From an uncultured Candidatus Saccharibacteria bacterium (GTDB taxonomy: Bacteria > Patescibacteriota > Minisyncoccia > Portnoybacterales > UBA2143), in NCBI GenBank assembly GCA_964403725.1, contig CAYOHI010000002.1, forward strand, positions 21,644 through 85,643: DNA of 64,000 nt, given 5' to 3'. The notes beneath the pieces are model-generated. The model was not told where the DNA came from. It saw only the letters and a program-made list of their open reading frames with translations, and did not search any database. Positions within the stretch are counted from its first letter, which is position 1. The number at the start of each line of letters is the position of its first letter. Positions 14,310 through 61,940 of this stretch are shown one piece after another. A program made the position numbers and the translations under genes.

Positions 14310-15848
14310 ATGCTAACCAAAGACCAATACTATTTAAAATTAGGCAAAGCACCTGATTTGAAAGATTCTAAAGAGCGATTCATTTATCGTTTCTTTGAAA
14401 TTATACCTGGCACTCTAGCTTGGGCTACGATTCTAGGCGTGATTTTCTTTTCTTGGTATAGGCCAGTTTGGGTGGCTTTTTTCATTATTGCTTTTGACGT
14501 TTACTGGGTCCTGAAAACCATATATTTCTCAGTCCATCTGAGAGCCAGTTACAAGCAGATGAAGAAGAATATGAAGATTGATTGGTTTAGTAAAGTCAAA
14601 GAACAAAAAGACTGGCAAAGAATTCATCACCTATTAATCCTTCCTTTTTACAAAGAGCCATATGATGTGATTGCAAAAACATTACAAGCTTTAGTTGATT
14701 CTGATTATCCAAAAGACAAAATGATTGTTGTCCTGGGAGCTGAAGAAAGAGTTGGAAAACCAGCTCAAGAAATTTTAAAAAAAGCAGAAAAAGAATTTGG
14801 CCATAAATTTTTTAAATTCTTAGGGACAACGCATATTTTAAAAGAGGGTGAAATGGCTGCCAAAGGAGCGAACAGTACATGGGCAATCAGACAAGTCAAA
14901 AGAGAGATTATTGATCCTTTGAAAATCTCATATGAAGATATTGTTGTCTCATGCGGCGATGTTGATACTGTATTTTTACCTAAGTATTTTTCAATATTAA
15001 CTTATCACTATTTGACAGTTGATAAGCCAACCAGAACTGGTTATCAGCCAATTCCTGTTTTTAATAATAATATTTGGCAAACATCATGCTTTTCCAGAGT
15101 AGTGGCTACTTCAGGAACTTTCTGGCAAATGATTCAGCAAATGAGACCAGAAAGATTATCTAGTTTCTCTTCTCAATCATTGAGCTTCAAGACCTTGGTT
15201 GACGTTGATTTCTGGCCAGTTAACATGGTTTCAGAAGATTCAAGAATATTCTGGCAGAATCTACTTTACTATGATGGAGATTATAAAGTGGTTCCTTTGT
15301 ATTATCCTGTTTCAATGGATGCTAACTTAGCTGACAACTTTTGGCAAACTTCAGCCAATGTCTACAGACAGCAGAAACGCTGGGGTTGGGGAGTAGAGAA
15401 TATCCCATATTTACTATTTGGATTTTTAAAAAACAAGAAAATTTCTAAAAAAATTAAATGGCATTGGACTTGGGTCCAATTTGAAGGATTTTGGTCTTGG
15501 GCAACCAATGCCTTATTAATATTCATGCTTGGTTGGCTACCACTGTATTTGGGCGGAGATTGGTTCAATGCCACAATCCTTTCATACAATTTGCCGTTTA
15601 TAACCAGGACCTTGATGAACATCGCTATGATCGGCTTGATTGGCTCAGCAATCTATTCAACTTTACTTTTGCCAAAAAGACCAAAGGATTTTGGAATTTT
15701 AAAGCATTTAGGAATGGTTATCCAGTGGATATTAGTGCCTTTCACTATTCTGATCTTTGGGGCCATTCCAGGACTAGAAGCCCAGACTAGACTGTTACTA
15801 GGGAAATATATGGGTTTTTGGGTAACGCCTAAGAAGCATAAAAAGTAG
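14310..15848 (+). CDS. family-2 glycosyltransferase, processive type (membrane)
   Basis: D/D/D region (VVSCGDVDT) and QQKRW (QxxRW) motif, plus multiple TM helices. Cellulose/chitin-synthase-like architecture. Confidence 0.55.
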   Translation: MLTKDQYYLKLGKAPDLKDSKERFIYRFFEIIPGTLAWATILGVIFFSWYRPVWVAFFIIAFDVYWVLKTIYFSVHLRASYKQMKKNMKIDWFSKVKEQKDWQRIHHLLILPFYKEPYDVIAKTLQALVDSDYPKDKMIVVLGAEERVGKPAQEILKKAEKEFGHKFFKFLGTTHILKEGEMAAKGANSTWAIRQVKREIIDPLKISYEDIVVSCGDVDTVFLPKYFSILTYHYLTVDKPTRTGYQPIPVFNNNIWQTSCFSRVVATSGTFWQMIQQMRPERLSSFSSQSLSFKTLVDVDFWPVNMVSEDSRIFWQNLLYYDGDYKVVPLYYPVSMDANLADNFWQTSANVYRQQKRWGWGVENIPYLLFGFLKNKKISKKIKWHWTWVQFEGFWSWATNALLIFMLGWLPLYLGGDWFNATILSYNLPFITRTLMNIAMIGLIGSAIYSTLLLPKRPKDFGILKHLGMVIQWILVPFTILIFGAIPGLEAQTRLLLGKYMGFWVTPKKHKK

Positions 15849-15884
15849 AAAGGCCGCATCCATTTGGATACGACCTTCTTGGTG

Positions 15885-15916
15885 AGTCTCTGTCCGTACA
15901 GAGACTTTTATTTTTT
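15885..15916 (+). terminator. rho-independent terminator
   Basis: Stem AGTCTCTG/CAGAGACT with loop tccgta, then TTTTATTTTTT. Confidence 0.6.
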
Positions 15917-16029
15917 GTGGGGTTCGACTCGCTACTATTGAATCGCTCTCGAGAAAGAACAAAAATTCATTAGCAGCGAGCGAACCATTTTCAATGATAC
16001 TCATTTTTTTTATTTAGTCAAGGATTTAA

Positions 16030-16058
16030 AAAGCCGGAAACACTAAGTTTCCGGCTTT
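16030..16058. terminator. bidirectional terminator hairpin (serves the minus-strand gene 16117..16506)
   Basis: Perfect 12-bp stem AAAGCCGGAAAC/GTTTCCGGCTTT with loop actaa and T-runs on both sides. Confidence 0.55.
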
Positions 16059-16116
16059 GTTGATTTTAATTTGACGACTAGGTGTCTCGAGAGCTTGCGC
16101 TCACCTAGTCGTGAAA

Positions 16117-16506
16117 TTAAGATAGAGGTTGGCAGAACTTCCTGAATTTGTACAGGGGTTCTGCGGTTTCGGCACAGGTCGTGCAATGCATTGTTTGCGG
16201 TACTTGCCTCAATCTAGGCGTGGGGATCTCGTCTTCGCAGACAATGCAGATGCCATATCGGCCTTCTTTTATTGCTCGAATAGCGTGACTGAAGGCGCAT
16301 AGTAGAGCATTTAGGCTTTGAATGCGAGCCGATGAAACATGAGAAACGAGCGAACAATTGTTTTCGGGTTTGCAATCCCGATCAGGTACCCGTAATTCCT
16401 GTTTCGCTTCTTCTAGTTTCTTTCGATAAAATCCCTGGACTGTCTCTAAAAAATCAATACTAGGTCTTCCAGGGTACCTTGCCTTAATTACTTCCAACGA
16501 ATCCAT
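16117..16506 (-). CDS. DksA/TraR-family C4 zinc-finger protein
   Basis: CIVC-x17-CTTC (CxxC-x17-CxxC) near the C-terminus. GC-richer than the flanks. Confidence 0.5.
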   Translation of the reverse strand: MDSLEVIKARYPGRPSIDFLETVQGFYRKKLEEAKQELRVPDRDCKPENNCSLVSHVSSARIQSLNALLCAFSHAIRAIKEGRYGICIVCEDEIPTPRLRQVPQTMHCTTCAETAEPLYKFRKFCQPLS

Positions 16507-16580
16507 GTATTACCTCTCTAATATGGGGTTAATAAAACGTACTAATATATATTATACACAAAATACAGAATTTGTCAATG

Positions 16581-18665
16581 TTATTCCAAATGAATGTCTT
16601 GATGGAAATTTTCAATTCTTTTCTCCATGTCAGGATTGATCATCTCATTCTCAATTACCAAATTAGCAGCCTGTCTGCTTTTTTTAATTAATTCCAAATC
16701 ATCTAAAGAAGCCATGGCTAAATCAGGTAATCCCCACTGTCTAGTGCCGATAAAATTGCCAGGACCTCTTAATTTCAAATCTTTTTCTGCTAATTCAAAG
16801 CCATCTTTAGCTTTAATTATGGCTTTTAATCTCTCGTCGGTCTTTTGGGTCTCTGAATCGGTGAAAAGGAAGCAATATGACTGGTGTTTGCCTCTGCCAA
16901 TTCTGCCTCTGAATTGATGCAGCTGGGAAAGGCCAAATCTGTCAGCTCCTTCAATAATCATAACTGTCGCATTAGGTATATCAACGCCAACTTCAATGAC
17001 TGAAGTTGAAACCAAAATATCTGTTTTGCCATCTTTGAAATCTTTCATTATTTTTTCTTTTTCTTTTGGCTTTAATTTCCCATGAAGCATGTCTGTCTGA
17101 AAATGCGGGAAGATTTCTTTGGAAAGCATTTCATGCTCTTGAGAAACTGATTTAACATCTAATTTTTCTGATTCGTCAATTAAAGGACAAATGACAAAAA
17201 CTTGCCTTTTCTTCTTAATTTGCTTGGTTATGAAATCATATGCTTCTTGTCTTTTGTCCGGGGTAACTAGTTCAGTAATGATTTTCTGCCTTCCTTTGGG
17301 CAATTCTTTGATTAAAGAAATATCAAGATCGCCATAAATTGTCAAAGCCAGAGTCCTGGGAATTGGCGTAGCAGTCATTGATAAAAGATGAGGGATAGTT
17401 GGCAGGCCGTCTTCCATATTGTATATCTTTTTCTGCAAAGCTGCTCTTTGGGCAACGCCAAATCTGTGCTGTTCATCAATGATGGCCAGGGCTAAGTTTT
17501 TAAAAGACATATTCTCTTGAATCAAGGCATGGGTGCCAATGATAATATCTACATTTCCATTCAATATTTCTTTTTTTAATTGAGGTTTAGTGATTTTTTC
17601 CTTACTGCTAATATCCTTATCTGTTCCAGTTAAAAGACCAACAGTTAATTTTTGTTTTTTTAAGAAATTAACAAAGCTCTCATAATGCTGCCTAGCCAAT
17701 ATTTCAGTTGGCGCCATCAGGGCCACCTGGTACCCGGCTTTAGCGGTCTCTAAAGCAGCCATCAGGGCAACGATGGTTTTGCCTGATCCGACATCGCCGT
17801 TCATTAATCTGTTCATGGGCTGGTTTTTAGACATGTCCTGGAATATTTCCCAAGCAGCCAGACGCTGGTCATTAGTTAATTTAAAAGGCAAGCTTTTGAC
17901 AAAAGATTTAATTAATTTTTGATTAAATTCAACACTGATTGATTTTTCTTTGTTGTATCTTCTCTTTTGCAAAAGAGTTGTTAATTGAATTAAAAAAAGC
18001 TCGTCAAAGCTCAATCTTTGGCGGGCTTTCTGGGCAAAGGAAAGATTTTCAGGGAAATGAATTTGCTTAATGGCTTCGCTTAAGTTCAATAATTCAAATT
18101 TCTTCTTAATCCCATCGGGTAAAAAATCCGTAAAATGATCTGTTAAATAGGTGATGGGCTTAATGATGTATCTAATGTATCTAGAGCTTAATCCTTCTGT
18201 TTCGTGATAGACGGGAACCAAGCGACCGGTATGAACTGTGTCTAATTTAGCTAATTCATAGGCGGGATTAGACAGACAAAGAGTTTTTTTAGAAAAAGTA
18301 AGTTTGCCTGAAAGGCTAATGACTCTTCCTTTTTTTAGACTCTGGGTTAAGTATGGCTGGTTATACCAGACAACTTTAATACTGCCAGTGTCATCTTTAA
18401 TTAAAGCTTCAGTTAGAATTAATTTTCTCTTTATTCTCTGATAGGGAATCCTAATATTCTTAATATCTACAATTTCTCCCTGGACGGTTGCTTTTTGGCC
18501 TTCTTTTAACTGACTAATGGGAACAGTTTGTGAAAAATCCTCATAGCGGTGGGGAAAATGAAAAAATAGGTCCCGGACGCTTTTGATATTAAGCTTATGC
18601 AGCTTTTTCAAATATGCGGGACCTACTTTGGAAATATCTTCAATTTTTGATGATAATGATAACAT
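16581..18665 (-). CDS. recG: ATP-dependent DNA helicase RecG
   Basis: GDVGSGKT Walker A, DEQHRFGV box, TATPIPRTLA motif, wedge-domain N-terminus. Start trimmed to MLSLSS because the ORF-track start at 18710 runs through a tRNA gene. Confidence 0.9.
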   Translation of the reverse strand: MLSLSSKIEDISKVGPAYLKKLHKLNIKSVRDLFFHFPHRYEDFSQTVPISQLKEGQKATVQGEIVDIKNIRIPYQRIKRKLILTEALIKDDTGSIKVVWYNQPYLTQSLKKGRVISLSGKLTFSKKTLCLSNPAYELAKLDTVHTGRLVPVYHETEGLSSRYIRYIIKPITYLTDHFTDFLPDGIKKKFELLNLSEAIKQIHFPENLSFAQKARQRLSFDELFLIQLTTLLQKRRYNKEKSISVEFNQKLIKSFVKSLPFKLTNDQRLAAWEIFQDMSKNQPMNRLMNGDVGSGKTIVALMAALETAKAGYQVALMAPTEILARQHYESFVNFLKKQKLTVGLLTGTDKDISSKEKITKPQLKKEILNGNVDIIIGTHALIQENMSFKNLALAIIDEQHRFGVAQRAALQKKIYNMEDGLPTIPHLLSMTATPIPRTLALTIYGDLDISLIKELPKGRQKIITELVTPDKRQEAYDFITKQIKKKRQVFVICPLIDESEKLDVKSVSQEHEMLSKEIFPHFQTDMLHGKLKPKEKEKIMKDFKDGKTDILVSTSVIEVGVDIPNATVMIIEGADRFGLSQLHQFRGRIGRGKHQSYCFLFTDSETQKTDERLKAIIKAKDGFELAEKDLKLRGPGNFIGTRQWGLPDLAMASLDDLELIKKSRQAANLVIENEMINPDMEKRIENFHQDIHLE

Positions 18666-18743
18666 TGGCGTCCTCGGAGGGACTCGAACCCCCGGCCTCT
18701 GGAACCGCAATCCAGCGCTCTAATCCGGCTGAGCTACGAGGAC
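18666..18743 (-). tRNA. tRNA-Arg (anticodon read as GCG)
   Basis: The reverse complement folds as GTCCTCG / GCTC-AGCCGGATTA-GAGC / CTGGA-TTGCGGT-TCCAG / GGGGG-TTCGAGT-CCCTC / CGAGGAC-G-CCA. The anticodon identity needs tRNAscan confirmation. Confidence 0.7.
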
Positions 18744-19292
18744 TTATAACTTTATGACGATAACCATTTCTCCTGGTGCTGTTCCCCAGCTTAACCCATC
18801 ACCGCGAATAAATCCAGTACTTAGATTCCCGTCATCTGCCATTTCATCTATTCTCAACATCGATTCGGATGGGATAACGCCCTGATTATTAGATGAGCTT
18901 GTTCCAGGCCGATCATCATCAAAAACAATTCCTAATTCATTGCCTGGGATTCCATCCCAATCGGCAACTGATAATCCCGTGTGTCCTGTCCAAGGATGAG
19001 TTGAATCATATATTTGATGATATGGCCCTGCCCAACCGGTTATTCCCAAGGCGTTAAGAAAGGGATCGGTTGATTCAGTGCAATCTAATCTGCAATTTGG
19101 GGGATATTGATTAGTATCATCAAGATAAAGCGCAGTGGCTTTAGTGATTTCTCTAATTTGGGCAACTGCTTTTGATATTCTTGCTTTTTCTCTGGCAGTA
19201 TTAAGGCTTACTAAGACAATAGTCGCTAAAAGACCAATTATAGCGATAACTACTAAGAGTTCTATTAAAGTAAAGCCTTTGTTAATCTTCAT
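18744..19292 (-). CDS. prepilin-type N-terminal cleavage/methylation domain protein (pilin/pseudopilin)
   Basis: MKINKGFTLIELLVVIAIIGLLATIV class III signal with G-1 and F+1/E+5. Confidence 0.65.
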   Translation of the reverse strand: MKINKGFTLIELLVVIAIIGLLATIVLVSLNTAREKARISKAVAQIREITKATALYLDDTNQYPPNCRLDCTESTDPFLNALGITGWAGPYHQIYDSTHPWTGHTGLSVADWDGIPGNELGIVFDDDRPGTSSSNNQGVIPSESMLRIDEMADDGNLSTGFIRGDGLSWGTAPGEMVIVIKL

Positions 19293-19293
19293 T

Positions 19294-19761
19294 TTAAAAC
19301 CTTATCTGCCTGGCCAAATTATCCGTTATGGATTCCTGATGCTTTTTCTCTGGCAAGTATTTAATCAGCATCTGTCTTATTTCAACCGGGTCTTGCTCGC
19401 CTAAAGGAATTCTAATATATGGCATAACTGTCTTTTTGCTTCTCAAGCTCAACTCTCTAATTTCAGGAGGATCATAGAAAAGCCAGAATGATCTTAAATT
19501 TTCGTAAGTATACAGAGTTCTTTCAACTTTTACTCCCTGAGGAGTAATGGCCAGACTTATCTCCCTAGGCCTCTTAGAAGCATACATGGATAAGATGAAG
19601 TAGGTCAAAGCAATCATCAAGGCAAAAAGCAGATTCTTTGTAAAAATAGCTATCAAAAAAAGAATGCCGGTAATCGCTCCGGTAACGATGTACCAGGATC
19701 CACTTTTTTCATAGTATTCAAATTCAGGAGCTGTCCATTCAATTTGATTTTTTTTATCCAT
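19294..19761 (-). CDS. hypothetical membrane protein
   Basis: Start trimmed to MDKKNQ because the ORF-track N-terminus is encoded by tRNA-Ser sequence. Two TM helices. Confidence 0.4.
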   Translation of the reverse strand: MDKKNQIEWTAPEFEYYEKSGSWYIVTGAITGILFLIAIFTKNLLFALMIALTYFILSMYASKRPREISLAITPQGVKVERTLYTYENLRSFWLFYDPPEIRELSLRSKKTVMPYIRIPLGEQDPVEIRQMLIKYLPEKKHQESITDNLARQIRF

Positions 19762-19846
19762 GGCGGAGAGAGAGGGATTCGAACCCTCATGTCCAATAGG
19801 ACGCCAGTTTTCAAGACTGGTGCAATAGCCGTTATGCGATCTCTCC
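19761..19846 (-). tRNA. tRNA-Ser (anticodon TGA)
   Basis: The reverse complement is GGAGAGA...CCAGT-CTTGAAA-ACTGG with a long variable arm (CGTCCTATTGGACA), T arm GAGGG-TTCGAAT-CCCTC and CCA end. Confidence 0.8.
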
Positions 19847-19848
19847 AA

Positions 19849-20112
19849 TTAAGAATATAACTTATTATGTGTTCCAACAGCAACAAAATATATTATTTTA
19901 TTTTTTGCTATTTCTCGGAATACCGCTCGCCAATCTGAGTTGATATTAATACTTCTGTAACTTTTTAACTTTCCGTGAAGTTTGTGATTGTTTAAGGCAG
20001 GACTATAAGGATCTTTTATAAATATCTCTAATTTGTTTTTAAATAATTTTCTAATTTTTACCGGACACTTCCTAAATTCTTTAATGAATTTTTTAGAATA
20101 CTCGATTTGCAT
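19849..20112 (-). CDS. type II toxin, RelE/ParE (YoeB-like) family
   Basis: 87 aa. FIKEFRK...KIRKLFKNKLEIFIKDPYSP...LHGKLKSYRSININSDWRAVF..IIYFVAVGTHNKLY matches RelE-fold toxin patterns. Confidence 0.65.
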   Translation of the reverse strand: MQIEYSKKFIKEFRKCPVKIRKLFKNKLEIFIKDPYSPALNNHKLHGKLKSYRSININSDWRAVFREIAKNKIIYFVAVGTHNKLYS

Positions 20113-20118
20113 AATTCA

Positions 20119-20391
20119 TTACTTATCGAGAAATTTAATTGCTTTTTCACTGTCTTTGAAAGAGTAAAAATCATTACTCTCTCTTTCTTTTTCTGATTCC
20201 CTTATAGATGACAATAAATAATCACTAGGTGAATTTTCGTTTAAAGTAAAAACAATAGTCTTGTCGCGAACAAACTGTCTTAAGAAACCATTGATTGCTC
20301 CGCTCAGGGTTAATCCCATCTGAGCAGCAACTTTTTTAGCTTCCTTTTTAACCTTGGGATCTGTTTTAATGTTTATAATTGTTGAATTCAT
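20119..20391 (-). CDS. type II antitoxin (RelB/DinJ-like)
   Basis: 90 aa, 6 bp upstream of the toxin. INIKTDPKVKKEAKKVAAQMGLTLSGAINGFLRQFV ribbon-helix-helix-like N-terminus. Confidence 0.5.
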   Translation of the reverse strand: MNSTIINIKTDPKVKKEAKKVAAQMGLTLSGAINGFLRQFVRDKTIVFTLNENSPSDYLLSSIRESEKERESNDFYSFKDSEKAIKFLDK

Positions 20392-20410
20392 AATTCTGTT
20401 AATTCTATTA

Positions 20411-20440
20411 ATATATACTTTGTATATACTAAGTATATAT
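20411..20440 (-). promoter_or_regulatory. candidate TA promoter/operator
   Basis: Three tandem palindromic RTATATAY units (atatatac, gtatatac, gtatatat) immediately upstream of the antitoxin gene. Confidence 0.2.
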
Positions 20441-20471
20441 TTAATAATTCATAATGTCAAGGTATATTCTT

Positions 20472-20558
20472 TGGCGGAAGAGGCGGGATTCGAACCCGCG
20501 AGTCCAAAAAGGACGACAGATTAGCAATCTGTTGCAATAGCCACTATGCGACTCTTCC
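20472..20558 (-). tRNA. tRNA-Ser (anticodon GCT)
   Basis: The reverse complement is GGAAGAG...ACAGA-TTGCTAA-TCTGT with a long variable arm, T arm CGCGGG-TTCGAAT-CCCGC and CCA end. Confidence 0.8.
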
Positions 20559-20596
20559 AGTAAGTTTAATTTACCACTTTATTTATTAACAGTCAA

Positions 20597-20926
20597 TCAA
20601 TCTTTGGCAATGACTAATCCTATAATTTTATTCGGATTTAGAGTTTTCAAAGCTTCACTTGCCTCATTTATGGTAGACCCGCTGGTACAGATGTCATCTA
20701 CTATAATAATATTTTTATTCTCTAAATTCTCTTTAAAATTCAAATTAATTTGAAAAGAATCTTTAATATTCTCACTCCTTAAATCTGTATTCTGTATTTT
20801 AGCCTGAGGCAATGAATATTTACTTCTAATCAAAATATTACTTAACACAGGAATATTTAACTTTTTTCCAATTTCTTGAGATAGTAGTTCACTTTGGTGA
20901 AAACCGAGCTTTCCAGTGGAGAATTA
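20597..20926 (-). pseudogene. 5'-truncated duplicate of the comF 3' region (PRTase domain fragment)
   Basis: Translates to ...KLGFHQSELLSQEIGKKLNIPVLSNILIRSKYSLPQAKIQNTDLRSENIKDSF...NIIIVDDICTSGSTINEASEALKTLNPNKIIGLVIAKD. This matches comF (21413..22201) residues ~140-262 at DNA level (~85% by eye). Confidence 0.6.
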
Positions 20927-21063
20927 TTATTTTATTTAAAGGTTGAGTTCAGTCCAAATAAGTTTGACAAGAATATGTTTATATGTTATTCTATCTTCAG
21001 TTCCAACATTAACAAGGGGATTAAATGGTCTAGATATATAGAAATAGAAAAGGAGAAGTAGCA

Positions 21064-21342
21064 ATGAAAAAAGTGATTGATACTCGTGGCTATGGTACCT
21101 CCGAGGGATTTGCAACGCAAATCACTCTGCCTAGTGGCAAATATATGTATACTGGGGTTGGTTCTGTTGCAGAACAAATTGCCAAAGACAAGGGCTTGGA
21201 ATGCAAAACAGTCAGTTATTTCGGGGCGTGTATTTACTGTAATATAAATGATCGCGCTCATCAGGATATGCCGATTCAAATTGACGGTGTTAGCGTAGCT
21301 GACTTCATAGATAAAATTGCTACTGATGAAGAATGCTTCTAA
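21064..21342 (+). CDS. hypothetical 92-aa protein (GC-richer) lodged between comF and its partial duplicate
   Basis: SD GGAGAAG upstream. No recognisable domain. Terminator downstream. Confidence 0.35.
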   Translation: MKKVIDTRGYGTSEGFATQITLPSGKYMYTGVGSVAEQIAKDKGLECKTVSYFGACIYCNINDRAHQDMPIQIDGVSVADFIDKIATDEECF

Positions 21343-21382
21343 TCTACTAAATCCGTATCCCTGCCATTTTTGTTTAAATGTG

Positions 21383-21415
21383 AAAGCCGCATGGTTTGCC
21401 CAGCGGCTTTTTTTA
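21383..21415 (+). terminator. rho-independent terminator
   Basis: Stem AAAGCCGC/GCGGCTTT followed by TTTTTTT. Confidence 0.5.
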
Positions 21416-22201
21416 CTCCCTAGCGATGACTAATTTATAAATATTTTTGGGTTTTAAGGTTTCTAAAGCTCTAACACACTCATCAAGCGTAGATCCACTA
21501 GTGCAAATATCATCTACTAAGATGATATTTTTGTTAACCCACCCCAGTCCTCCCTTATCAGGGAGGGAGTTATTCAAAAGATTATTCCTCTCCTGATAAG
21601 GGGAGGTTAGGAGGGGTTTTCTTAACTCAAAAGAATCTTTAATATTCTCCCTCCTCAAATCTGCATTCTGTATTTTGGCCTGAGGCAGTGAATATTTGGT
21701 TCTGATTAGAATATTGTCAAAAATAGGAATATCCATTTTCTTCCCAATTTCTCGGGCTAATAATTCTGATTGATTAAATCCACGCCATTTTAATCTTTTT
21801 GTATGCAAAGGAATAGGGACAAGAATTAGATTTTCAATATTTTCCCTTTTTAATCTTTCAATCATTAGAAGACTCAAAGGCTTTGCTAAGTCTCTTACAA
21901 AATCATACTTATACCTATGGATTAATTCTTTAACTAATTGGTTTTTGTAATAGCTGGAAATTAACAGATTATCTTTTGTTTCCTTGGTATTTAAAGGGAT
22001 GCTCTTAAAACAAGAGTGACACAAAAATTTACCTTCTTGATTACAGCCAAGGCATTGAATAGGAAAAAGAATATCTAAAATAGTTTTCCACATGTTTAAT
22101 TTCTTTGTTCTTTCATTTATGTTATACTTTTCAATAGATAAAGAAAAGGAAGAAATGAAAGAGATTAGCTGACCAGGAGATCTTATCCCGAAGAAGTACA
22201 A
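21413..22201 (-). CDS. comF: ComF/GntX-family phosphoribosyltransferase-domain protein with an in-frame palindromic insertion
   Basis: N-terminal Zn finger CLGCNQEGKFLCHSC. C-terminal PRTase motif ILVDDICTSGSTL. Carries an extra ~20-aa segment (PLLTSPYQERNNLLNNSLPDKGGLGW) that the duplicate copy lacks. Confidence 0.65.
   Translation of the reverse strand: MYFFGIRSPGQLISFISSFSLSIEKYNINERTKKLNMWKTILDILFPIQCLGCNQEGKFLCHSCFKSIPLNTKETKDNLLISSYYKNQLVKELIHRYKYDFVRDLAKPLSLLMIERLKRENIENLILVPIPLHTKRLKWRGFNQSELLAREIGKKMDIPIFDNILIRTKYSLPQAKIQNADLRRENIKDSFELRKPLLTSPYQERNNLLNNSLPDKGGLGWVNKNIILVDDICTSGSTLDECVRALETLKPKNIYKLVIARE
21548..21616. repeat. GC-rich compound inverted-repeat miniature insertion inside comF (in frame)
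   Basis: Two hairpins, CTCCCT-tatc-AGGGAG and CCTCTCC-tgataa-GGGGAGG. They are mutually inverted (ttatcag vs ctgataa). Absent from the duplicate copy. Confidence 0.45.
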
Positions 22202-22233
22202 GGGTGGATTTAGGTAATTTAAGAGATTAAAAT

Positions 22234-23295
22234 ATGTTTTTATTAAAAAAAAAGCTAAAGAATCGTCTGGGTATTGATATTAGCGCTTCGGCTGTAAAAA
22301 TGGTTGAACTGGGAAAAGAGGATGGCAGACATAAATTAAATAACTATGCAGTCTTTTCTCTGGAAAAATATTTGAAAAGCAAAGGTCAGCAGCCTGATGC
22401 TGAAGATTTTCAAATCCCCAGTGATGAAATGGCCAAGATAATCAAGCAGACTATCAAAGAGGCTAAGATTAAATCCAAGGATGTCTATCTCTCTGTTCCG
22501 GTTTATTCCAGCTTCTATACATTGATTGATTTCCCAGATATGTCCCAGAAGGAAATTGAAGCAGCTATTCCTTTTGAAGCGAGAAAATATGTGCCTATCC
22601 CAATTTCAGAAGTAATCCTAGACTGGAGTGTCGTTGATACGCCTAACAAGAAGGATAGCAAGCAAGTTCTCCTTATTGCCGTACCTAAGAAAGTTATCAA
22701 TAACTATAACCAGATAGTTAAAGCAGCTGGTTTAAATTTAAAAGGAATTGAAGGAGAAACCTTCAGTCTGACCCGTGCTTTGATAGGTAATGATAAAAGT
22801 GGTATTATTCTAGTAGATAACGGAGCCCGTTCAATCAATGTCAGTATCATCGATGGCGGATACATCAGGGTAACCCATAACTTAGAGATGGGTGGCCGGA
22901 AGATCACCAAGGCTATTGCCCAGCAAATGAATCTTGATCTGGAAAAAGCAGAGCATTTCAAAAGAAGATTATCTGATAAAAAATCAATTGAGCCAACAGA
23001 TCCTCAATTAAGAAGCGTTATTCAATCTTCCTTAGGGATGATCGTAGTTGAGATTAAGAAGATAATAGATAACTACCAGAATAAGTATAACAGGAAAATT
23101 GAAAAAAGCGTCCTGGTTGGCAGCGGAGTATATTTATCAGGATTTGATAGTAGCTTAGTCAGTAGATTATCTTTAGACACATCGATAGGCGACCCTTTTG
23201 CTCGGGTAACCTGTCCTGATGTCATCAAGCCAGTCTTAAAGGACTTGGGTCCTCCATTGGCTGTAGCCACGGGATTGGCTATGAGAGAGGAATAA
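22234..23295 (+). CDS. pilM: type IV pilus assembly ATPase-like protein PilM
   Basis: Actin-like fold. GIDISASAVKMVEL N-terminus typical of PilM. 353 aa. Confidence 0.8.
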   Translation: MFLLKKKLKNRLGIDISASAVKMVELGKEDGRHKLNNYAVFSLEKYLKSKGQQPDAEDFQIPSDEMAKIIKQTIKEAKIKSKDVYLSVPVYSSFYTLIDFPDMSQKEIEAAIPFEARKYVPIPISEVILDWSVVDTPNKKDSKQVLLIAVPKKVINNYNQIVKAAGLNLKGIEGETFSLTRALIGNDKSGIILVDNGARSINVSIIDGGYIRVTHNLEMGGRKITKAIAQQMNLDLEKAEHFKRRLSDKKSIEPTDPQLRSVIQSSLGMIVVEIKKIIDNYQNKYNRKIEKSVLVGSGVYLSGFDSSLVSRLSLDTSIGDPFARVTCPDVIKPVLKDLGPPLAVATGLAMREE

Positions 23296-23307
23296 GGATT
23301 TTCAAAT

Positions 23308-23886
23308 ATGGATATAAAGTTAATGCCAGAAAAATATAAGAAGAGAGGGATTGGCGGCGGAGTCAATCTGGGCGGCGATCCGTTAAAGGCTTTTAAAAAA
23401 GCCGGTCTTTGGCTCACCTTGTCGATTATTTTGTCGGTTGGCGCAGCTCTGGTTTGCTTCGGTCTCTGGGGTTACAAAATCAGCTTGAATAACAACAAGG
23501 AGGAATTAACCCAGAAATTAGAAGACTTGCAAGGTGAGAGAGATTTGGAACTGGAAGGCAATTTCATAGAATTAAAAGAGACAATCGAAAATTTTGAAGA
23601 AATATTGAGCCAAAGAGTCTATTTATCCAATGTTTTTGGCATGCTTGAAGATATTACCTTATCTCAGGTTAAGTATGAAAGCTTTACGATCAATCTTTCT
23701 GATTCAACTCTTGATTTGAAAACAGAAGCTACCAGCTATGAGTCTTTAGTCAAACAAGTAATGGCTTTTAGAGAAGATAGCAGGATAAAGGAAATCATTT
23801 TCTCTGAAGCTACTTTGGAAAAGGGAGGCTTTGTTGGGACTACCTTTAATCTTGAATTTGAACCTAGTCTTTTATCTTTAGAATAA
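23308..23886 (+). CDS. pilN: PilN-like bitopic membrane protein
   Basis: One TM helix then coiled coil. Positioned after pilM. Confidence 0.45.
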   Translation: MDIKLMPEKYKKRGIGGGVNLGGDPLKAFKKAGLWLTLSIILSVGAALVCFGLWGYKISLNNNKEELTQKLEDLQGERDLELEGNFIELKETIENFEEILSQRVYLSNVFGMLEDITLSQVKYESFTINLSDSTLDLKTEATSYESLVKQVMAFREDSRIKEIIFSEATLEKGGFVGTTFNLEFEPSLLSLE

Positions 23887-23889
23887 TTT

Positions 23890-24510
23890 ATGAATAAAAA
23901 AGTAATAATCATTTTAGTAAATATCCTAGTAGGCATAGCTCTGCTGTTTGTCTTTGCTGATCCTCTGTGGAATTCGATCAAGGTTTTAAGAGCTGAAATT
24001 GACAAGCAAAATGAAGAGATAAGCAAAGTTGAAGAGCTTTTAGTAAAAGTCCAGGAATTAGAGGCAGAATATCAGGAAACGGGTGGCGAGGCCATAGAGG
24101 GGATTCTTGAAGCTTTGCCTGAGGAAAAGGATCTGCCATACTTAATCAATCAATTTGAAGCTATGGCCGTGAATAACGGCTTATTAATGGAGTCAATAAA
24201 ATTCAGCGAAGACATTAAAAGCGATAAAAAAAGCACTCAGCAGTCTAGTCAAATGGATGAATTTAGCGCGAGTAGTAATAGTGACAGCCAGGAAGTCATT
24301 TCACCTTTCCCATATCTAACCGTTGAAATGACACTGAGTGGATCCTATGAAGGATTCAAAACCTATTTGGAAGATTTAGAAAGCAATATCCGCTTAATGG
24401 ATATCAAGGATGTCGACTTTGCCAGTGAACAAAGCAAAGACAGCGAAGGTGAATCATCAGGTTTGCCTATTTTCAAATTTAACATGGGATTATTGGTCTA
24501 TTATCAATAA
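23890..24510 (+). CDS. pilO: PilO-like bitopic membrane protein
   Basis: One TM helix then coiled coil. Positioned after pilN. Confidence 0.4.
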   Translation: MNKKVIIILVNILVGIALLFVFADPLWNSIKVLRAEIDKQNEEISKVEELLVKVQELEAEYQETGGEAIEGILEALPEEKDLPYLINQFEAMAVNNGLLMESIKFSEDIKSDKKSTQQSSQMDEFSASSNSDSQEVISPFPYLTVEMTLSGSYEGFKTYLEDLESNIRLMDIKDVDFASEQSKDSEGESSGLPIFKFNMGLLVYYQ

Positions 24511-24520
24511 TTAATTAAAA

Positions 24521-24940
24521 ATGAATCTTAAATCAATTTTATCAATTTTTTCAAAGAATTCTCTAGATCAGGATAAGAAGCAGAAGATAATGATAGGCGC
24601 CTTTGTCGGTGTCGTCGTAGCTATTGTCGCGATCCTGTATTTCGGCATGTGGCGTTCGCCGTCAATTCCTGATGATGCGCTTATGGATGAAGGAGTACCT
24701 GGTGGCGAATTGGGCATGATTGAAGATCCAACAATGATTGGAGATGGTTTTGAAAATACTGAAGCTATTGCGATGCCTAGTGGTGGGAGTAATTTTGTTG
24801 GAGATATCATTAACAAAATCAATTTTGATACTAGCTTTTTGAAAACATCTCGTTTCCAGGATTTAAAAGCTTATGGGGAATGGCCTTTGGAAATAGGGGA
24901 AAAAGGTCGGCTAAACCCATTTTTACCACACGGTCAGTGA
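24521..24940 (+). CDS. hypothetical membrane protein in the pilus locus (PilP-position)
   Basis: TM anchor. Assigned by position only. Confidence 0.3.
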   Translation: MNLKSILSIFSKNSLDQDKKQKIMIGAFVGVVVAIVAILYFGMWRSPSIPDDALMDEGVPGGELGMIEDPTMIGDGFENTEAIAMPSGGSNFVGDIINKINFDTSFLKTSRFQDLKAYGEWPLEIGEKGRLNPFLPHGQ

Positions 24941-25006
24941 GCAGCTAACAATGAATAGTAAATAATATTGTTTTTGTTTCCTGTTCATTGCTTGTTGTGA
25001 TGGTTT

Positions 25007-26638
25007 ATGGTGACTGATAAAAAAGACAATTCAAATGAAAAAAAAATATCGGAAGACAAAACACAGACGTCTGAAGCACCCCTTGTTGACTTAGCTCACA
25101 AAGAGATTCCGGTAGAAGTATTAAAAGAGGTTCCCGAAGAGGCAGCGTCTTTTTATAGCTTTGTTCCCATAACCAGAAGCGGTAATGTTTTGGAAGTGGG
25201 TATGGTTGACCCAACTAATCTTAAGGCTAAGGAGGCTTTAAGATTCATTACTCGCAGAAGCGGCCTGGAAACAAAGATATTTACTATCAGCCAAACCGAT
25301 TTTAATAACGTATTGAGACAGTATCGCAGCTTAAGAGGCGAGGTCAACAAGGCCTTAAAAGAATTAGAAGAAGAAATTGAAGCAGAAGAAAGTATTGGTT
25401 CGCCTAAAGGGAAACCTGGAGAAATGGCTGAAAAGATCGTTGCCGAGGCGCCGATTACTAAAATTGTAGCAGTTGTTCTGAGACATGCAACCGAAGGAAA
25501 AGCTTCAGATGTACACATTGAAGCAGCAGAGGATAAGGTAAAGGTTCGTTTCAGAGTTGATGGAGTCCTCTATACTAGCCTGATTTTACCCAAAGAAGTT
25601 CATTCAGCTATTGTTTCCAGAATTAAGATACTTTCTGATTTGAAAATTGATGAAACAAGAGTTCCTCAAGATGGTCGATTCCATACTGTTGTGGCTGGCA
25701 AGAAGATCGATTTCCGTGTTTCTACCCTGCCAACAGCTGGTGGAGAGAAAGTCGTTTTAAGGGTTTTAGACCCATCAGCTGGCCTGAGAGATTTTACCAA
25801 ATTAGGATTAAGCGGCTATAATCTAGAAGTTCTTAAAAAAGAAATCAAGCAGCCTTTCGGCATGGTTTTAATTACCGGTCCGACTGGTTCCGGTAAATCA
25901 ACAACTCTTTACGCTATTTTAAACAGCTTAAACCAAGAGGGAGTCAATATTATCAGCCTGGAAGATCCGGTAGAATATTTCGTTGAAGGAATTAACCAAT
26001 CCCAGATTATGCCAGAGATCGGATATACCTTTGCTTCTGGTCTGCGCCATATCTTAAGGCAAGACCCAGATATTATCATGGTCGGAGAGATTAGAGACCA
26101 AGAAACAGCTGAACTGTCTATTCATGCAGCTTTGACCGGACACATTCTTCTTTCTACCCTGCATACCAACGATGCTATAGGGGTAGTTCCAAGATTGGTT
26201 GATATGAAGATTGGATCATTTCTTCTGCCTTCTTCGTTGAATTTGATGATTGCCCAGCGTCTAGCCAGAAGATTATGCGAGAAGTGCAAAAAAGAAGTAG
26301 CAGCTCCGCCCAAGGTCAATGAAATGATTGAAGAAGAGCTAGCTAAGCTAAATCCAATGCATAAGGAAGCGTTTCCTTGGGAGAGGCCGTTTAAGATATA
26401 TCGTCCAGTTGGCTGTAAATTTTGTGGAAATAAGGGGACAAAAGGTCGAATTGCCCTTTATGAAATATTACAAATGACTCCTCAATTAGAAGAAATCATT
26501 GCTGGAGAGTTAAACGAAGTGAAAATTAAAGAAGAAGCCTATAGGCAAGGAATGATTACGATGAAGCAGGACGGCGTAGCTAAATCGCTTCAAGGAACCA
26601 TTTCTTTTGAAGAGATGATTAGGATGGTTGAGGAATAA
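25007..26638 (+). CDS. pilB: type IV pilus assembly ATPase PilB (GspE family)
   Basis: GPTGSGKSTT Walker A, Asp box, His box, C-terminal tetracysteine (CEKCKK...CKFCG). Confidence 0.9.
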   Translation: MVTDKKDNSNEKKISEDKTQTSEAPLVDLAHKEIPVEVLKEVPEEAASFYSFVPITRSGNVLEVGMVDPTNLKAKEALRFITRRSGLETKIFTISQTDFNNVLRQYRSLRGEVNKALKELEEEIEAEESIGSPKGKPGEMAEKIVAEAPITKIVAVVLRHATEGKASDVHIEAAEDKVKVRFRVDGVLYTSLILPKEVHSAIVSRIKILSDLKIDETRVPQDGRFHTVVAGKKIDFRVSTLPTAGGEKVVLRVLDPSAGLRDFTKLGLSGYNLEVLKKEIKQPFGMVLITGPTGSGKSTTLYAILNSLNQEGVNIISLEDPVEYFVEGINQSQIMPEIGYTFASGLRHILRQDPDIIMVGEIRDQETAELSIHAALTGHILLSTLHTNDAIGVVPRLVDMKIGSFLLPSSLNLMIAQRLARRLCEKCKKEVAAPPKVNEMIEEELAKLNPMHKEAFPWERPFKIYRPVGCKFCGNKGTKGRIALYEILQMTPQLEEIIAGELNEVKIKEEAYRQGMITMKQDGVAKSLQGTISFEEMIRMVEE

Positions 26639-27077
26639 AATTAAATATATGAAAAACAAAGGATTTACTTTAATAGAGCTTTTAATAGTTATTGCCATAA
26701 TTGGAATTTTGGCAACAACGGCTTTTTACAGCCTGAGTTCTATTAAATCTAAAAGCAGGGATGCCCGTCGGGTAGCAGATATTAGGGCAGTCCAGCAAGG
26801 ATTATCAATGTATTACAATGATAATTCTCTTTATCCTGATTCAGGAGGGAGTGCCATTGAGATTGATGGAAGCGGTGACGCCATGTCACAGGCTTTGATT
26901 GATGAAGAGTTAATGAACAGTATTCCACTTGATCCGTTTAATAAGGATGTGGATGGAACAGTGTATAAATACTATTATGAATCACTTGATGATGAAAGTG
27001 ACTATGAGTTAACTTTTTATCTAGAGACAGATTCAATTCAAAATAGGTCACAAGGAGAAAATATAGTTAGTCCATAA
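26628..27077 (+). CDS. type IV pilin
   Basis: MKNKGFTLIELLIVIAIIGILA prepilin signal. Confidence 0.7.
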   Translation: MRNKIKYMKNKGFTLIELLIVIAIIGILATTAFYSLSSIKSKSRDARRVADIRAVQQGLSMYYNDNSLYPDSGGSAIEIDGSGDAMSQALIDEELMNSIPLDPFNKDVDGTVYKYYYESLDDESDYELTFYLETDSIQNRSQGENIVSP

Positions 27078-27086
27078 TATAAAAAT

Positions 27087-27458
27087 ATGAAAAAAGTATT
27101 AATCATAGAAGATGATCCGTTTTTAAGTGAAATGTATGCTGCTAAGTTTGCTGAAAGCGGCTTTGAAGCAGAAGTAGCTTCAGATGGCGGTCAAGGTCTG
27201 ACCAAGGTTGCTGAGTTCAAGCCAGATCTTGTTCTTTTAGATATTGTTTTGCCAAAGATGGATGGTTTTGAAATCTTGAAAAAGATTAAGGAAAACGATG
27301 AATTAAAAGGAATTCCTGTCATCCTTCTGACTAATTTGGGCCAGAAGAATGAAGTGGAAAAGGGATTATCTTTGGGAGCTGAGGAATATATTATTAAAGC
27401 TCACTTTACGCCAACGGCTGTAGTAGCCAAGGTGAAAGATGTGTTGAATAAACTATAA
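27087..27458 (+). CDS. single-domain response regulator receiver (CheY/PilH-like)
   Basis: DD acid pocket, phospho-acceptor Asp in LVLLDIVLPKMDG, conserved Thr and Lys positions. Confidence 0.75.
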   Translation: MKKVLIIEDDPFLSEMYAAKFAESGFEAEVASDGGQGLTKVAEFKPDLVLLDIVLPKMDGFEILKKIKENDELKGIPVILLTNLGQKNEVEKGLSLGAEEYIIKAHFTPTAVVAKVKDVLNKL

Positions 27459-29782: not shown

Positions 29783-30232
29783 ATGTTAAAAATCTTAAGA
29801 CAAAAAAATAGAGGTTTTACGTTGATTGAACTATTGGTAGTTATTGCCATTATTGGAACATTAGCTACTGTTGTTTTAGTTTCTTTAAATGAAGCCAGGA
29901 GCAAAGCGCGTGATGTTAGGCGATTGGCTGATTTAAGGCAACTGGCTTTAGCTTTGGAATTGTATTATGATACTAGTGGTGCCTATATTGATTCCGGTGG
30001 AGTATGTGTCGTGGCCAATGAAGCGAATATGGGCGATCTGACACCTGACTATATCGGCTCCATGCCAGCTGATCCGGGAGCGACTACTGAATATTATTAT
30101 GGAGCAGCTACTGATGAGCAAGCATATGTCTTGCGAGCAGTAATGGAAGGAACCGTGCCAGATGGCTCTTATACGGTTGATGAGTTCGGCTGTAGCTGTG
30201 ATCAGGCCAGTGAATATTGTATCAGGCCATAA
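29783..30232 (+). CDS. type IV pilin with C-terminal disulfide pair
   Basis: RGFTLIELLVVIAIIG prepilin signal. C-terminal GCSCDQASEYCIRP. Confidence 0.7.
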   Translation: MLKILRQKNRGFTLIELLVVIAIIGTLATVVLVSLNEARSKARDVRRLADLRQLALALELYYDTSGAYIDSGGVCVVANEANMGDLTPDYIGSMPADPGATTEYYYGAATDEQAYVLRAVMEGTVPDGSYTVDEFGCSCDQASEYCIRP

Positions 30233-30296: not shown

Positions 30297-30758
30297 GTGA
30301 AAAAAATGATAAAGTATTTTCACGAAAAGAAAGTCCAGAAAGGTTTTACATTGATTGAACTATTAGTAGTTATCGCTATTATTGGTGTATTGGCTACTAT
30401 CGTATTAGTTTCTCTTAATACAGCTCGAAGCAAGGCACGTGATAGTCGAAGGGTTAGTGATATGAGACAGTTGGCTTTGGCTTTAGAGATGTATTACGAT
30501 GATAATGATGCTTATATTGATTCAGGTGCAGCATGTGTGGCAGCAACTGAAGCTAACTTAGGCGGCCTAACACCTGACTATATGGGAACTCTACCATCAG
30601 ATCCAGGAACAGGCTCATATTCTTACGGAGCAGATGCTACTGAACAAGACTACGTTTTAAGAGCAGTAGTAGAAAACTCTTTGCCTGATGGCTCTTATAC
30701 AACGGATATTTACGGTTGTAGTTGTGACCAAGCAACAGAATATTGTATTAGGCCTTAA
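30297..30758 (+). CDS. type IV pilin paralog (tandem duplicate)
   Basis: KGFTLIELLVVIAIIG signal. C-terminal GCSCDQATEYCIRP. Strongly resembles the pilin at 29783..30232. Confidence 0.7.
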   Translation: MKKMIKYFHEKKVQKGFTLIELLVVIAIIGVLATIVLVSLNTARSKARDSRRVSDMRQLALALEMYYDDNDAYIDSGAACVAATEANLGGLTPDYMGTLPSDPGTGSYSYGADATEQDYVLRAVVENSLPDGSYTTDIYGCSCDQATEYCIRP

Positions 30759-34237: not shown

Positions 34238-34558
34238 ATGAAAAAGACAAAATTACCTCAAATCAAGAAAGACATTAAGGCTTTCTTAACGAGCGAAGAA
34301 GGAAGGATAAATAAAAAGAAAGTAGCCAAAGTGGCTATGGGTCTTTTGGCTTTAGGAGTTGGTTTAGCTGGTGCTATGAAGCCAGATCCAACTTCAGCTG
34401 CCTGTTCTCATGCCTCTCACGGCTCACACGGATCCCATAGTTCCCACGGATCCCACGGCTCTCACGGCTCACACGGTTCTCATGGAAGTCATGGATCACA
34501 TGGTAGTCACGGCTCACACGGCTCACACGGCTCACACGGATCTCATAGTAATTATTAA
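34238..34558 (+). CDS. His-Xaa-Ser repeat precursor peptide (HxsA-like) with 14 His-Gly-Ser repeats
   Basis: 106 aa: Lys-rich leader, hydrophobic VAMGLLALGVGLAGAM segment, then SHASHGSHGSHSSHGSHG...(HGS)n...SHSNY. Confidence 0.65.
   Translation: MKKTKLPQIKKDIKAFLTSEEGRINKKKVAKVAMGLLALGVGLAGAMKPDPTSAACSHASHGSHGSHSSHGSHGSHGSHGSHGSHGSHGSHGSHGSHGSHGSHSNY
34406..34549 (+). repeat. in-frame 9-nt tandem repeat (TCN CAY GGN)x~15 encoding the SHG repeats
   Basis: Direct reading shows tctcacggc / tcacacgga / tcccatagt / tcccacgga... Third positions vary, so units are non-identical at DNA level. Confidence 0.8.
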
Positions 34559-34571
34559 TCTATAAATCATT

Positions 34572-35441
34572 ATGGGTTTTCTAAAAGAAAACAAATTATT
34601 AATAGGAATAGTAGTAGTGGTTTTGGTAGTTGTTGCTGGAATGGCAGCAATTTTTAATTGGCAAAAAACTCATCTTCCTCTAGATATTTCTCCAGAAGGA
34701 GTGAAAGCTAAATGTATTGAAGATATTACAGATATGACTGATGATGAATTAATCAATGAAGTTGATAGCTTGAAATATCCGGGAGAGGAAATATCTCCAG
34801 GAGAAACTAGAATGAATTACGGTCATAAGAATATTGTTAATTATTTAATCTGTAGATCAGTTAATGATGAAAATTACAGTAGAGCAAAAAGCTATATAGA
34901 AGGAGTGAATATCCAGGAGGAAAATAGAAAGGTGTCATTAAGTCGATTAAATGAGACTTACAATGAAGAAAATATGAATTTTTTAGAGTTATTAGCTAAT
35001 GGTAATTTAGATGATAACTGTCCTGATAAATTATCAAATCTTTGTCTTGAGAAAGCTAAGAATATATTAGGTGTTAATGAAAAAGTAGAAGAAGATTGTA
35101 ATAATATATGTGAAATTGCCAAAAATTCAAGCGAAGATGAATATTTAGAGAGCAAATTATTGAATTTAATTACTCCATCAGATGTCATATTCTACCCAGA
35201 ATCAATTATTGACGATTCTAATAAGATCATATCTCCAGAGTGGATATACGCCATAATATATAGATACAAGAAAGAAGAAGGAATACTAAAGACATGTGAA
35301 GTATTCGAGGGTGATCAAAAGAATGAATGTCTATCTTATGCAAATGATATTATCGATAGAATCAAAAAAACTGAAGGTGATTGTAGTTCTATTAGAGAAG
35401 ATTTAAGTCAGGTTATTTGTGATATTGTTGATGATAAATGA
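34572..35441 (+). CDS. membrane-anchored Cys-containing hypothetical protein
   Basis: N-terminal TM anchor. Acidic extracytoplasmic domain with several Cys pairs. Confidence 0.4.
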   Translation: MGFLKENKLLIGIVVVVLVVVAGMAAIFNWQKTHLPLDISPEGVKAKCIEDITDMTDDELINEVDSLKYPGEEISPGETRMNYGHKNIVNYLICRSVNDENYSRAKSYIEGVNIQEENRKVSLSRLNETYNEENMNFLELLANGNLDDNCPDKLSNLCLEKAKNILGVNEKVEEDCNNICEIAKNSSEDEYLESKLLNLITPSDVIFYPESIIDDSNKIISPEWIYAIIYRYKKEEGILKTCEVFEGDQKNECLSYANDIIDRIKKTEGDCSSIREDLSQVICDIVDDK

Positions 35442-57541: not shown

Positions 57542-57543
57542 AT

Positions 57544-61938: not shown

Positions 61939-61940
61939 TT

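Follow-up and report, generated by a model that had tools for sequence, protein, structure and literature searches.

How does a gene come to stand beside a second, headless copy of its own 3' end, with an unrelated small gene in between and a palindrome translated within its reading frame? The question is raised by the competence gene comF in a stretch of 64,000 nucleotides from an uncultured Candidatus Saccharibacteria bacterium (contig CAYOHI010000002.1), which we refer to throughout as the window. An earlier note on this DNA had reported a 5'-truncated copy of the comF 3' end next to the full gene, and such a copy is indeed present at or near the place given there; the note had also described the locus as the scar of an insertion or recombination event, a description that stands, the second copy being neither a working paralogue nor an artefact. 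The 3' part of the working gene does differ from the displaced fragment. Our analysis indicates that the arrangement is probably the outcome of two independent events of a known kind, namely (A) a recombination of diverged comF alleles and (B) the insertion of a palindromic repeat. The comF duplication itself is an ordinary scar: the examples are new, the kinds of scar are known. The features on which the argument turns are the following.

22093..21413, minus strand: comF, 226 aa plus stop; the mechanical open reading frame, 21413..22201, begins at TTG
21536..21618, no strand: palindromic element in comF, 83 nt, compound
21383..21414, plus strand: intrinsic terminator of ORF92, GCCGCATGG-TTTG-CCCAGCGGC followed by T7, as read from the sequence
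21064..21342, plus strand: ORF92, the 92-aa gene, convergent with comF, with an AAGGAG Shine-Dalgarno (SD) sequence before its ATG
20964..20992, plus strand: sigma-70-like promoter of ORF92, with TTGACA and TATTCT 17 nt apart and a TG in front of the latter (extended -10), recognised by its match to the consensus only
20919..20920, no strand: sharp recombination junction, with the ORF92 segment on its right and the truncated comF fragment on its left
20923..20597, minus strand: 5'-truncated comF 3' fragment, 108 codons plus stop
20472..20558, minus strand: tRNA-Ser(gct), which lies downstream of comF as a conserved neighbour throughout this lineage

Two diverged comF 3' ends at one locus

The fragment aligns with residues 105-226 of ComF (BLASTP E=4e-42), with which it shares 56% identity when a 20-aa gap is included and about 65% over the shared columns, while the identity of the DNA ranges from 73 to 80% depending on the stretch. 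Across 92 aligned codons, 27% of the nucleotides and 45% of the third codon positions differ (55% are identical), and we estimate a synonymous divergence (dS) of about 1.77 and a nonsynonymous divergence (dN) of about 0.18, hence a dN/dS of 0.10. So low a ratio, combined with a dS near saturation, indicates that both sequences evolved as working genes. The fragment itself, which reads from FSTGKLGFHQ.. to ..VIAKD*, has neither a start codon nor the N-terminal half and is preceded by two stops; homology to comF begins within 3 codons of 20919/20920, and positions 96-189 of the family model TIGR00201 match it without interruption. A frame of 108 open codons arose in 0 of 20,000 trials with random sequence of the same composition, and in simulations of neutral change the frame of the fragment remained open with P<=0.07 beyond 0.15 substitutions per site (closed with P>0.9). 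A frame that is still open in spite of the missing start implies that the truncation is recent compared with the divergence, and a recent truncation set upon an old divergence implies, in turn, that two long-separated alleles were joined rather than that one gene was copied on the spot. Judged by these features, the fragment is a young pseudogene remnant.

These data bear directly on another explanation, namely that comF was duplicated in tandem on the spot, after which the copies diverged, the second lost its 5' half and ORF92 was inserted between the two. What speaks for it is that the copies are mutually closest, with 65% amino acid identity to each other against 62% at most to any database homologue. 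A promoterless, start-less fragment cannot, however, have been under purifying selection for as long as a dS of about 1.8 at this dN/dS calls for, its frame would have closed over the neutral distance given above, and every relative that we examined has a single comF. We consider this explanation hardly worth crediting; of the duplication proposed in the earlier note, the second comF 3' copy is real, whereas its origin as a local copy has to be rejected in view of the dN/dS, the dS and the open frame.

The order of genes in relatives tells which of the two 3' ends occupies the original place. Here and in all relatives examined, comF is divergent from pilM-pilN-pilO-pilB, and in the relatives it lies between pilM and tRNA-Ser(gct), the gap from its stop codon to the tRNA measuring 36 nt in L014/L015 and L016 and 155 nt in L017; in the window, the end of the fragment is 38 nt away from tRNA-Ser(gct). 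Since the fragment sits at the site where relatives have the comF-tRNA-Ser(gct) junction, it holds the ancestral comF 3' position, and ORF92 together with the 3' part of the working gene would be the additions relative to the ancestral order. Beyond tRNA-Ser(gct), the minus-strand order in the window is a RelB/YafQ pair, tRNA-Ser(tga), a 155-aa gene, a pilin gene, tRNA-Arg(gcg) and recG; tRNA-Ser(tga), tRNA-Arg(gcg) and recG also come next in L014/L015 and L016, matching the window. The flanks resemble the nearest relative, L014, on either side (PilM 84% identical, the hypothetical 155-aa protein 81%, tRNA-Ser(gct) near-identical), and because both are equally related to L014, the foreign tract must be small and confined to comF and ORF92.

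The RelB/YafQ toxin-antitoxin pair (19849..20391) is wedged between tRNA-Ser(gct) and tRNA-Ser(tga). It is found between both tRNA-Ser genes in L016 as well and is absent from L014, where the tRNAs are adjacent; in another relative, L153, RelB follows comF.

A metagenomic contig with two comF 3' ends also invites the suspicion that the comF alleles of two strains were collapsed or concatenated by an assembler, and the metagenomic origin of the data, the strain heterogeneity near the locus (contig L004, discussed below) and the end of two Logan contigs at window position 20195 give some ground for it. The same arrangement is nevertheless present, 100% identical across both junctions, in four assemblies (one from JGI, two from Logan and one from ENA/NCBI) that were produced from different samples with different assemblers. 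The longest exact word common to both comF copies is moreover 21 nt, which makes it impossible for an assembler to have confused them. An assembly artefact is very unlikely as the source of the arrangement, its probability being next to negligible. The two Logan contigs, L002 and L003, both begin at 20195, inside relB, and this shared start suggests a strain-level branch point.

A compound palindrome within the ComF reading frame

The second peculiarity of the locus lies in the intact gene. The likely start of comF is the ATG at 22093, because its homologues begin with MWKTILD... A protein search returned 725 homologues, named ComF by NCBI and JGI, which place the organism among the Patescibacteria, close to Paceibacterota and Portnoybacteria-type metagenome-assembled genomes; the best non-self homologue is 59-62% identical. 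The N-terminal zinc ribbon has its four cysteines (C14, C17, C25 and C28) invariant in an alignment of 60 sequences and matches PF18912 (DZR_2) with E=3e-5, under the gathering score, while the type-I phosphoribosyltransferase (PRTase) domain matches PF00156 with 28.8 bits against a cut-off of 26.3 and contains the phosphoribosyl pyrophosphate (PRPP)-binding motif IILVDDICTSGST (LVDDICTSGST). The best NCBIfam match, TIGR00201, is split by the insertion and reaches 84 bits, below the curated cut-off of 233.55, as is usual for divergent Patescibacteria sequences. The AlphaFold2 model has a mean predicted local distance difference test score (pLDDT) of 90.3, and the sole solved relative found is ComFC of Helicobacter pylori (PDB 7P0H), the similarity being very weak (E=2e-4). 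The pilMNO-pilB context points to a possible role of ComF in DNA uptake.

In the inserted element, an AT-rich spacer separates the left unit, AACCCACCCCagtCCTCCCTTATCAGGGAGGG, from the right unit, CCTCTCCTGATAAGGGGAGGTTAGGAGGGGTT; translated in the frame of comF, the element gives (K)PLLTSPYQERNNLLNNSLPDKGGLGWV, with no stop codon. It has inverted ends, AACCC...GGGTT; by inspection, AACCC(A/T)CCC opens the units and GGGAGGG closes them, and no GTAG or CGTC head is visible on them. Folding of the DNA gave z=-2.9 for a 101-nt stretch and z=-4.5 for the loop; the comF sense strand carries a hairpin with no T-run after it, and the antisense strand looks like a terminator. In an Rfam scan the tRNAs alone were matched, the palindrome giving sub-threshold chance matches. 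The compound inverted repeat described in the earlier note is accordingly real and in frame, though its size is 83 nt and not about 66 bp. The truncated copy lacks it, as had also been observed, its loop being short and uninserted (INLNFKENLE), and this uninserted state is shared by most ComF homologues. None of the 119 other homologues listed carries the element.

Its position within the protein differs from the one first proposed, which was between the zinc finger and the PRTase domain. The hidden Markov model matches on ComF split at the element, and in the AlphaFold2 model it lies inside the PRTase domain, between the strand formed by residues 155-157 and the strand 189-193 that leads into LVDDICTSGST. 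Residues 163-181 have a pLDDT below 50, whereas the other blocks of 10 residues have at least 78 and, except for the N-terminal block, all exceed 90. According to the model, translation of the element would thus add a disordered loop, about 27 aa in length, just ahead of the PRPP motif, and the ComF that carries it may still be active.

The same loop is enlarged in other ComF proteins. Its normal length is 10-19 aa, yet it measures 22-135 aa in 32 of 116 homologues (28%) and in 28 of the 74 closest (homologues P0001-P0120). Five of the relatives with inserts (L016, L017, L152, L153 and L154) were tested at the DNA level; the inserts of four fold into strong, GC-rich hairpins (z between -4.6 and -7.7) whose sequences belong to unrelated families, one of them being of the type GTCATTCCC...GGGAATGAC, while the insert of the fifth is not a strong hairpin. 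The long inserts and their hairpins indicate that the loop recurrently takes or tolerates palindromic repeats.

The earlier note had proposed a search for the palindrome elsewhere, and this proved fruitful. A scan of metagenomes for the pattern of the inner hairpin returned at least 120 stretches, of which at least 64 also have the outer arm and at least 37 the full two-unit architecture. Among the matches listed, the full elements have spacers of 7-42 nt and reside on contigs with a GC content of 0.32-0.61; two copies, in L070 and L047, are near-identical to that of the window, spacer included, and three contigs (L078, L085 and L111) bear two copies each. The stems of the right unit vary by matched changes (TCTCCCC/GGGGAGA, ATCCCCC/GGGGGAT, CCTCCCC/GGGGAGG). 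Most copies are intergenic, an A-run precedes 19 of the 37 full elements listed, and some copies are followed by a T-run. Others lie in frame within at least six recognisable genes, encoding GlyRS, a glycosyltransferase, ApbE, MacB, GcvT and CysRS (metagenome contigs L144, L149, L062, L114, L117 and L103), where they encode the same peptides as in ComF, NPPQPSLIREG.. and ..SLPDKGGLGWV. The 83-nt element belongs to a widespread family of compound palindromic repeats that is REPIN/RPE-like (RPE, Rickettsia palindromic element), dispersed and mobile-looking. In L091, L124 and L147, the sequence after the element resembles, by eye only, the start of an rpoC-type gene.

Searches of the literature with the DNA and peptide words of the element returned nothing relevant, and in the library searched we found no paper on the element or on such insertions in Patescibacteria, which is no proof of novelty.

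The course of the recombination and its rivals

How the two alleles came together is best discussed alongside the small gene that separates them. ORF92 is a real, conserved but rare gene. The GC-richer segment with an unrelated 92-aa frame, endowed with its own SD and terminator, was correctly recognised in the earlier note: the GC content of ORF92 is 0.41 against 0.34 for the window, the 95th percentile of coding chunks of 300 nt, while its GC3 of 0.36 is unremarkable. The T-run of its terminator overlaps the comF stop codon (21413..21415); the scan tool misses this terminator because of a mismatch in the stem, and a similar terminator follows the ORF92 homologue in L009. We found 27 homologues, which are 57-78% identical to it; a set of 1.84 billion representative proteins contains 63 clusters of such sequences, and the gene occurs in 8 of about 185,000 species genomes, mostly labelled Patescibacteria-type. 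The AlphaFold2 model has a pLDDT of 92.5; ORF92 has no match in Pfam, NCBIfam, PHROG or PADLOC, and its fold none in PDB or BFVD. Each of the homologues examined lies in a different context, never beside comF and with no flanking target duplications, and this patchy yet well-conserved distribution suggests horizontal movement.

We also entertained, and rejected, the idea that ORF92 is a cassette that always brings a target duplication with it. The 137-nt repeats that flank the homologue in L009 proved to be a three-copy local intergenic repeat, and flanking repeats were found at no other ORF92 locus. The L009 repeat, about 130 nt long and terminator-bearing, surrounds the homologue at 3547-3666, 4748-4884 and 5386-5522, and a T-box leader (5581-5827) lies just downstream.

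The course that we consider most likely for event A is an import of comF' plus ORF92. Two comF alleles, having diverged as working genes in different Patescibacteria lineages, would have been brought together when incoming DNA of a related lineage carried the 3' part of comF (or the whole of it) together with the convergent ORF92. On the comF/pilM side, a homologous crossover would have taken this DNA into the resident comF, and on the other side an illegitimate joint would have formed at 20919/20920, that is, homology-facilitated illegitimate recombination (HFIR). The gene would have been kept whole in the process, leaving the displaced resident 3' end to decay between ORF92 and tRNA-Ser(gct). 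In event B, the 83-nt repeat would have landed in the PRTase surface loop before the PRPP-binding motif with the frame preserved. Patescibacteria are thought to rely on DNA uptake, and comF belongs to the apparatus that serves it; HFIR may be the mechanism at work, and it fits the locus because the latter encodes DNA-uptake functions (comF, pilMNO-pilB).

Several observations weigh against this account, and they concern both events. In the databases searched there is no donor or sister genome with an intact comF of the fragment type, the best non-self homologue of ComF being no closer than 59-62%. That the transfer went in the direction given, with the fragment as the resident 3' end, is thus our presumption, and neither the gene halves nor composition nor the flanks revealed where the second crossover lies. 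A mosaic test of the N-terminal half, the C-terminal half and the fragment against 75 homologues gave no discriminating pattern, and the composition of the gene parts (GC, GC3) is within the normal range of the window, with no foreign signal. A reversed polarity of the event, considered below, fits the flank identities equally well, and contig L004 joins the ORF92 segment to a tyrosine-integrase fragment at the identical nucleotide. As for the element, the 64-kb window holds one copy; no transposase is linked to it, no scan aimed at Y1 transposases having been made, and neither is a target-site duplication evident nor is there a consistent duplication in the flanks of its copies. The MITE-like (miniature inverted-repeat transposable element-like) element tolerated in frame that the earlier note had envisaged is borne out as a member of a dispersed, mobile-looking family; of the features of a MITE, the inverted ends are present, and no parent insertion sequence is known.

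The contig L004 deserves closer consideration. This ENA contig of 811 nt is 100% identical to window positions 20920..21430 and diverges exactly at 20919/20920; to the left of that point (L004:1-300) it encodes the C-terminal 84 aa of a tyrosine integrase, whose frame runs on the comF strand and is open from the junction nucleotide. The relatives of this integrase are all fragments on short contigs, one of them labelled Porticoccaceae; the nearest of them (P0150/L151) was uninformative as to how L004 continues, and no viral sequence matched. L004 could be a chimera formed at a genuine branch point in the assembly graph of its sample, or it could show the ORF92 segment in a second genomic setting. 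Such a contig is not what a one-off illegitimate junction would predict; it hints either at a defined end of an element or at an assembly chimera.

If the first of these hints is followed, the locus may be read as the product of site-specific integration, in which an element targeting comF brought a replacement 3' end and cargo, and the integrase and most of the cargo were later lost. The layout is the classical footprint of such an event, in which the target gene is made whole by the incoming 3' end and the native one is left on the far side of the cargo, and L004 ties the identical ORF92 segment to the C-terminus of a tyrosine integrase at 20919/20920. The table of called genes for the 12.3-kb stretch 15064..27342 nevertheless includes no integrase or recombinase, and between the repeats there is ORF92 alone; a tblastn search with the L004 integrase found no homologue anywhere in the window. 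The repeats, moreover, are about 330 nt long at 73-80% identity, with 21 nt as the longest exact match, rather than short identical att cores, and in the other genomes examined the ORF92 homologues are not beside integrases, comF or duplications, the one exception being L007, where the homologue adjoins an HTH_38/HTH_32 gene. Since the relatives of the L004 integrase are known only as fragments on short contigs, L004 may itself be chimeric, and this also counts against integration. We regard this explanation as unlikely, and the small cargo gene integrating with a replacement 3' end, as suggested in the earlier note, finds no support in a locus with no recombinase in that gene table and an ORF92 whose homologues occupy unrelated contexts.

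The polarity of the event might also be the reverse of the one that we prefer: comF and ORF92 would be resident, and the truncated comF would have been imported, anchored by homology in the highly conserved tRNA-Ser(gct) and fused by the illegitimate joint at 20919/20920. tRNA genes are good homology anchors, and the flank identities do not separate the two polarities; L004, in which the ORF92 side is 100% identical and the left side another, suggests that it is the left side that varies in the population. The reversed order of events requires, on the other hand, an earlier insertion of ORF92 between comF and the tRNA and then a second event at the same spot, and since the tRNA and the genes beyond it are as related to L014 as pilM is, the import could reach no further than about 130 nt. 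We hold this polarity to be quite improbable.

Elsewhere in the window, a 9-nt tandem repeat, TCNCAYGGN, is present in about 14-20 copies at 34388..34576 and would encode a Ser-His-Gly run. At 56600..62200, a run of paralogous genes shares words for C-N-N-H-C-x-F-C and related motifs, and looks like a series of tandem radical-SAM-type paralogues. Pilin-like genes share an N-terminal prepilin segment (19182..19297, 26641..26741, 29804..30232 and 30333..30758) and include a tandem pair that is about 74% identical.

Implications and comparison with known systems

With import of comF' and ORF92 as the preferred course, the locus would represent a competence gene that was rebuilt through recombination between diverged alleles and that puts up with selfish DNA within the domain responsible for catalysis. 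No new mechanism has to be invoked for the wider result, which is that several housekeeping proteins contain the translation of one widespread repeat family and that a single ComF loop has been invaded time after time; these cases allow testing how REP/RPE-like repeats spread and how proteins absorb them. A more far-reaching proposal, which we put forward tentatively and with more doubt than confidence, is that the 83-nt family spreads horizontally across many lineages (with a REPIN-like build, and not lineage-bound), that it and several unrelated families of palindromes enter the surface loops of housekeeping proteins again and again, in Patescibacteria as well as in other bacteria that are uncultivated, and that the pre-PRPP loop of ComF is a true hot spot, with at least four sequence families. 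Should this be true, selfish DNA in proteins, of the RPE type, would be general in these reduced genomes and not a curiosity of Rickettsia. A less likely addition is that the 0.5-kb ORF92 segment, its left end being defined (20920), is mobile as one piece, at which L004 hints.

Homology-facilitated illegitimate recombination in natural transformation is known from Acinetobacter and Streptococcus pneumoniae. Its product has one side anchored by homology and the other joined illegitimately, so that a foreign segment comes to lie beside a truncated remnant of the resident DNA; at comF, what the sequence shows is an abrupt joint at 20919/20920 beside a resident-type remnant, while the homologous crossover and the donor are putative. 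Integrative elements and prophages, for their part, insert into the 3' parts of genes and bring a replacement 3' end, as in the islands that target tRNA and tmRNA genes. They resemble our locus in that the target gene stays intact by virtue of the incoming 3' end and the displaced 3' end forms a direct repeat beyond the cargo; unlike them, comF has no recombinase in the gene table already mentioned, its repeats of about 330 nt are 20-27% diverged and the cargo amounts to one 92-aa gene.

As regards the protein, ComFC of H. pylori (7P0H) follows the same plan, having a zinc ribbon at its N-terminus and a PRTase fold that bears the PRPP loop xVDDxxTTGxT. The window ComF differs from it by the extra loop before the PRPP motif, about 27 aa long and disordered according to the model.

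The in-frame element calls to mind the RPEs, which were reportedly described by Ogata et al. in 2000 and by Claverie and Ogata in 2003. Like the comF element, RPEs are short, palindromic, selfish repeats in the coding genes of a small AT-rich genome; in both cases the insertion is in frame, has no stop codons and adds a surface segment that leaves the fold intact, and both families are also found between genes. Two reviews cover RPEs (PMC1779305, PMC10969869). The comF element is set apart by its unrelated, GC-rich sequence and its two inverted hairpin units with a variable spacer, and its family, found on contigs spanning a GC content of 0.32-0.61, apparently extends to many lineages, whereas RPEs belong to one genus. 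In its build it is like the REPINs and BIMEs (PMC3116915, PMC3337134), REP doublets that form hairpins and are mobilised by RAYT transposases; REPINs are described as vertically inherited and lineage-specific. The comF element likewise has two REP-like hairpin units, inverted and separated by a spacer, and its family, as REPINs do, lies mostly outside genes, often just after them and in a terminator-like form. It departs from REPINs in having, by inspection, neither of the two heads looked for, in occurring across very different contigs and in its intragenic, in-frame copies, which are atypical of REPINs.

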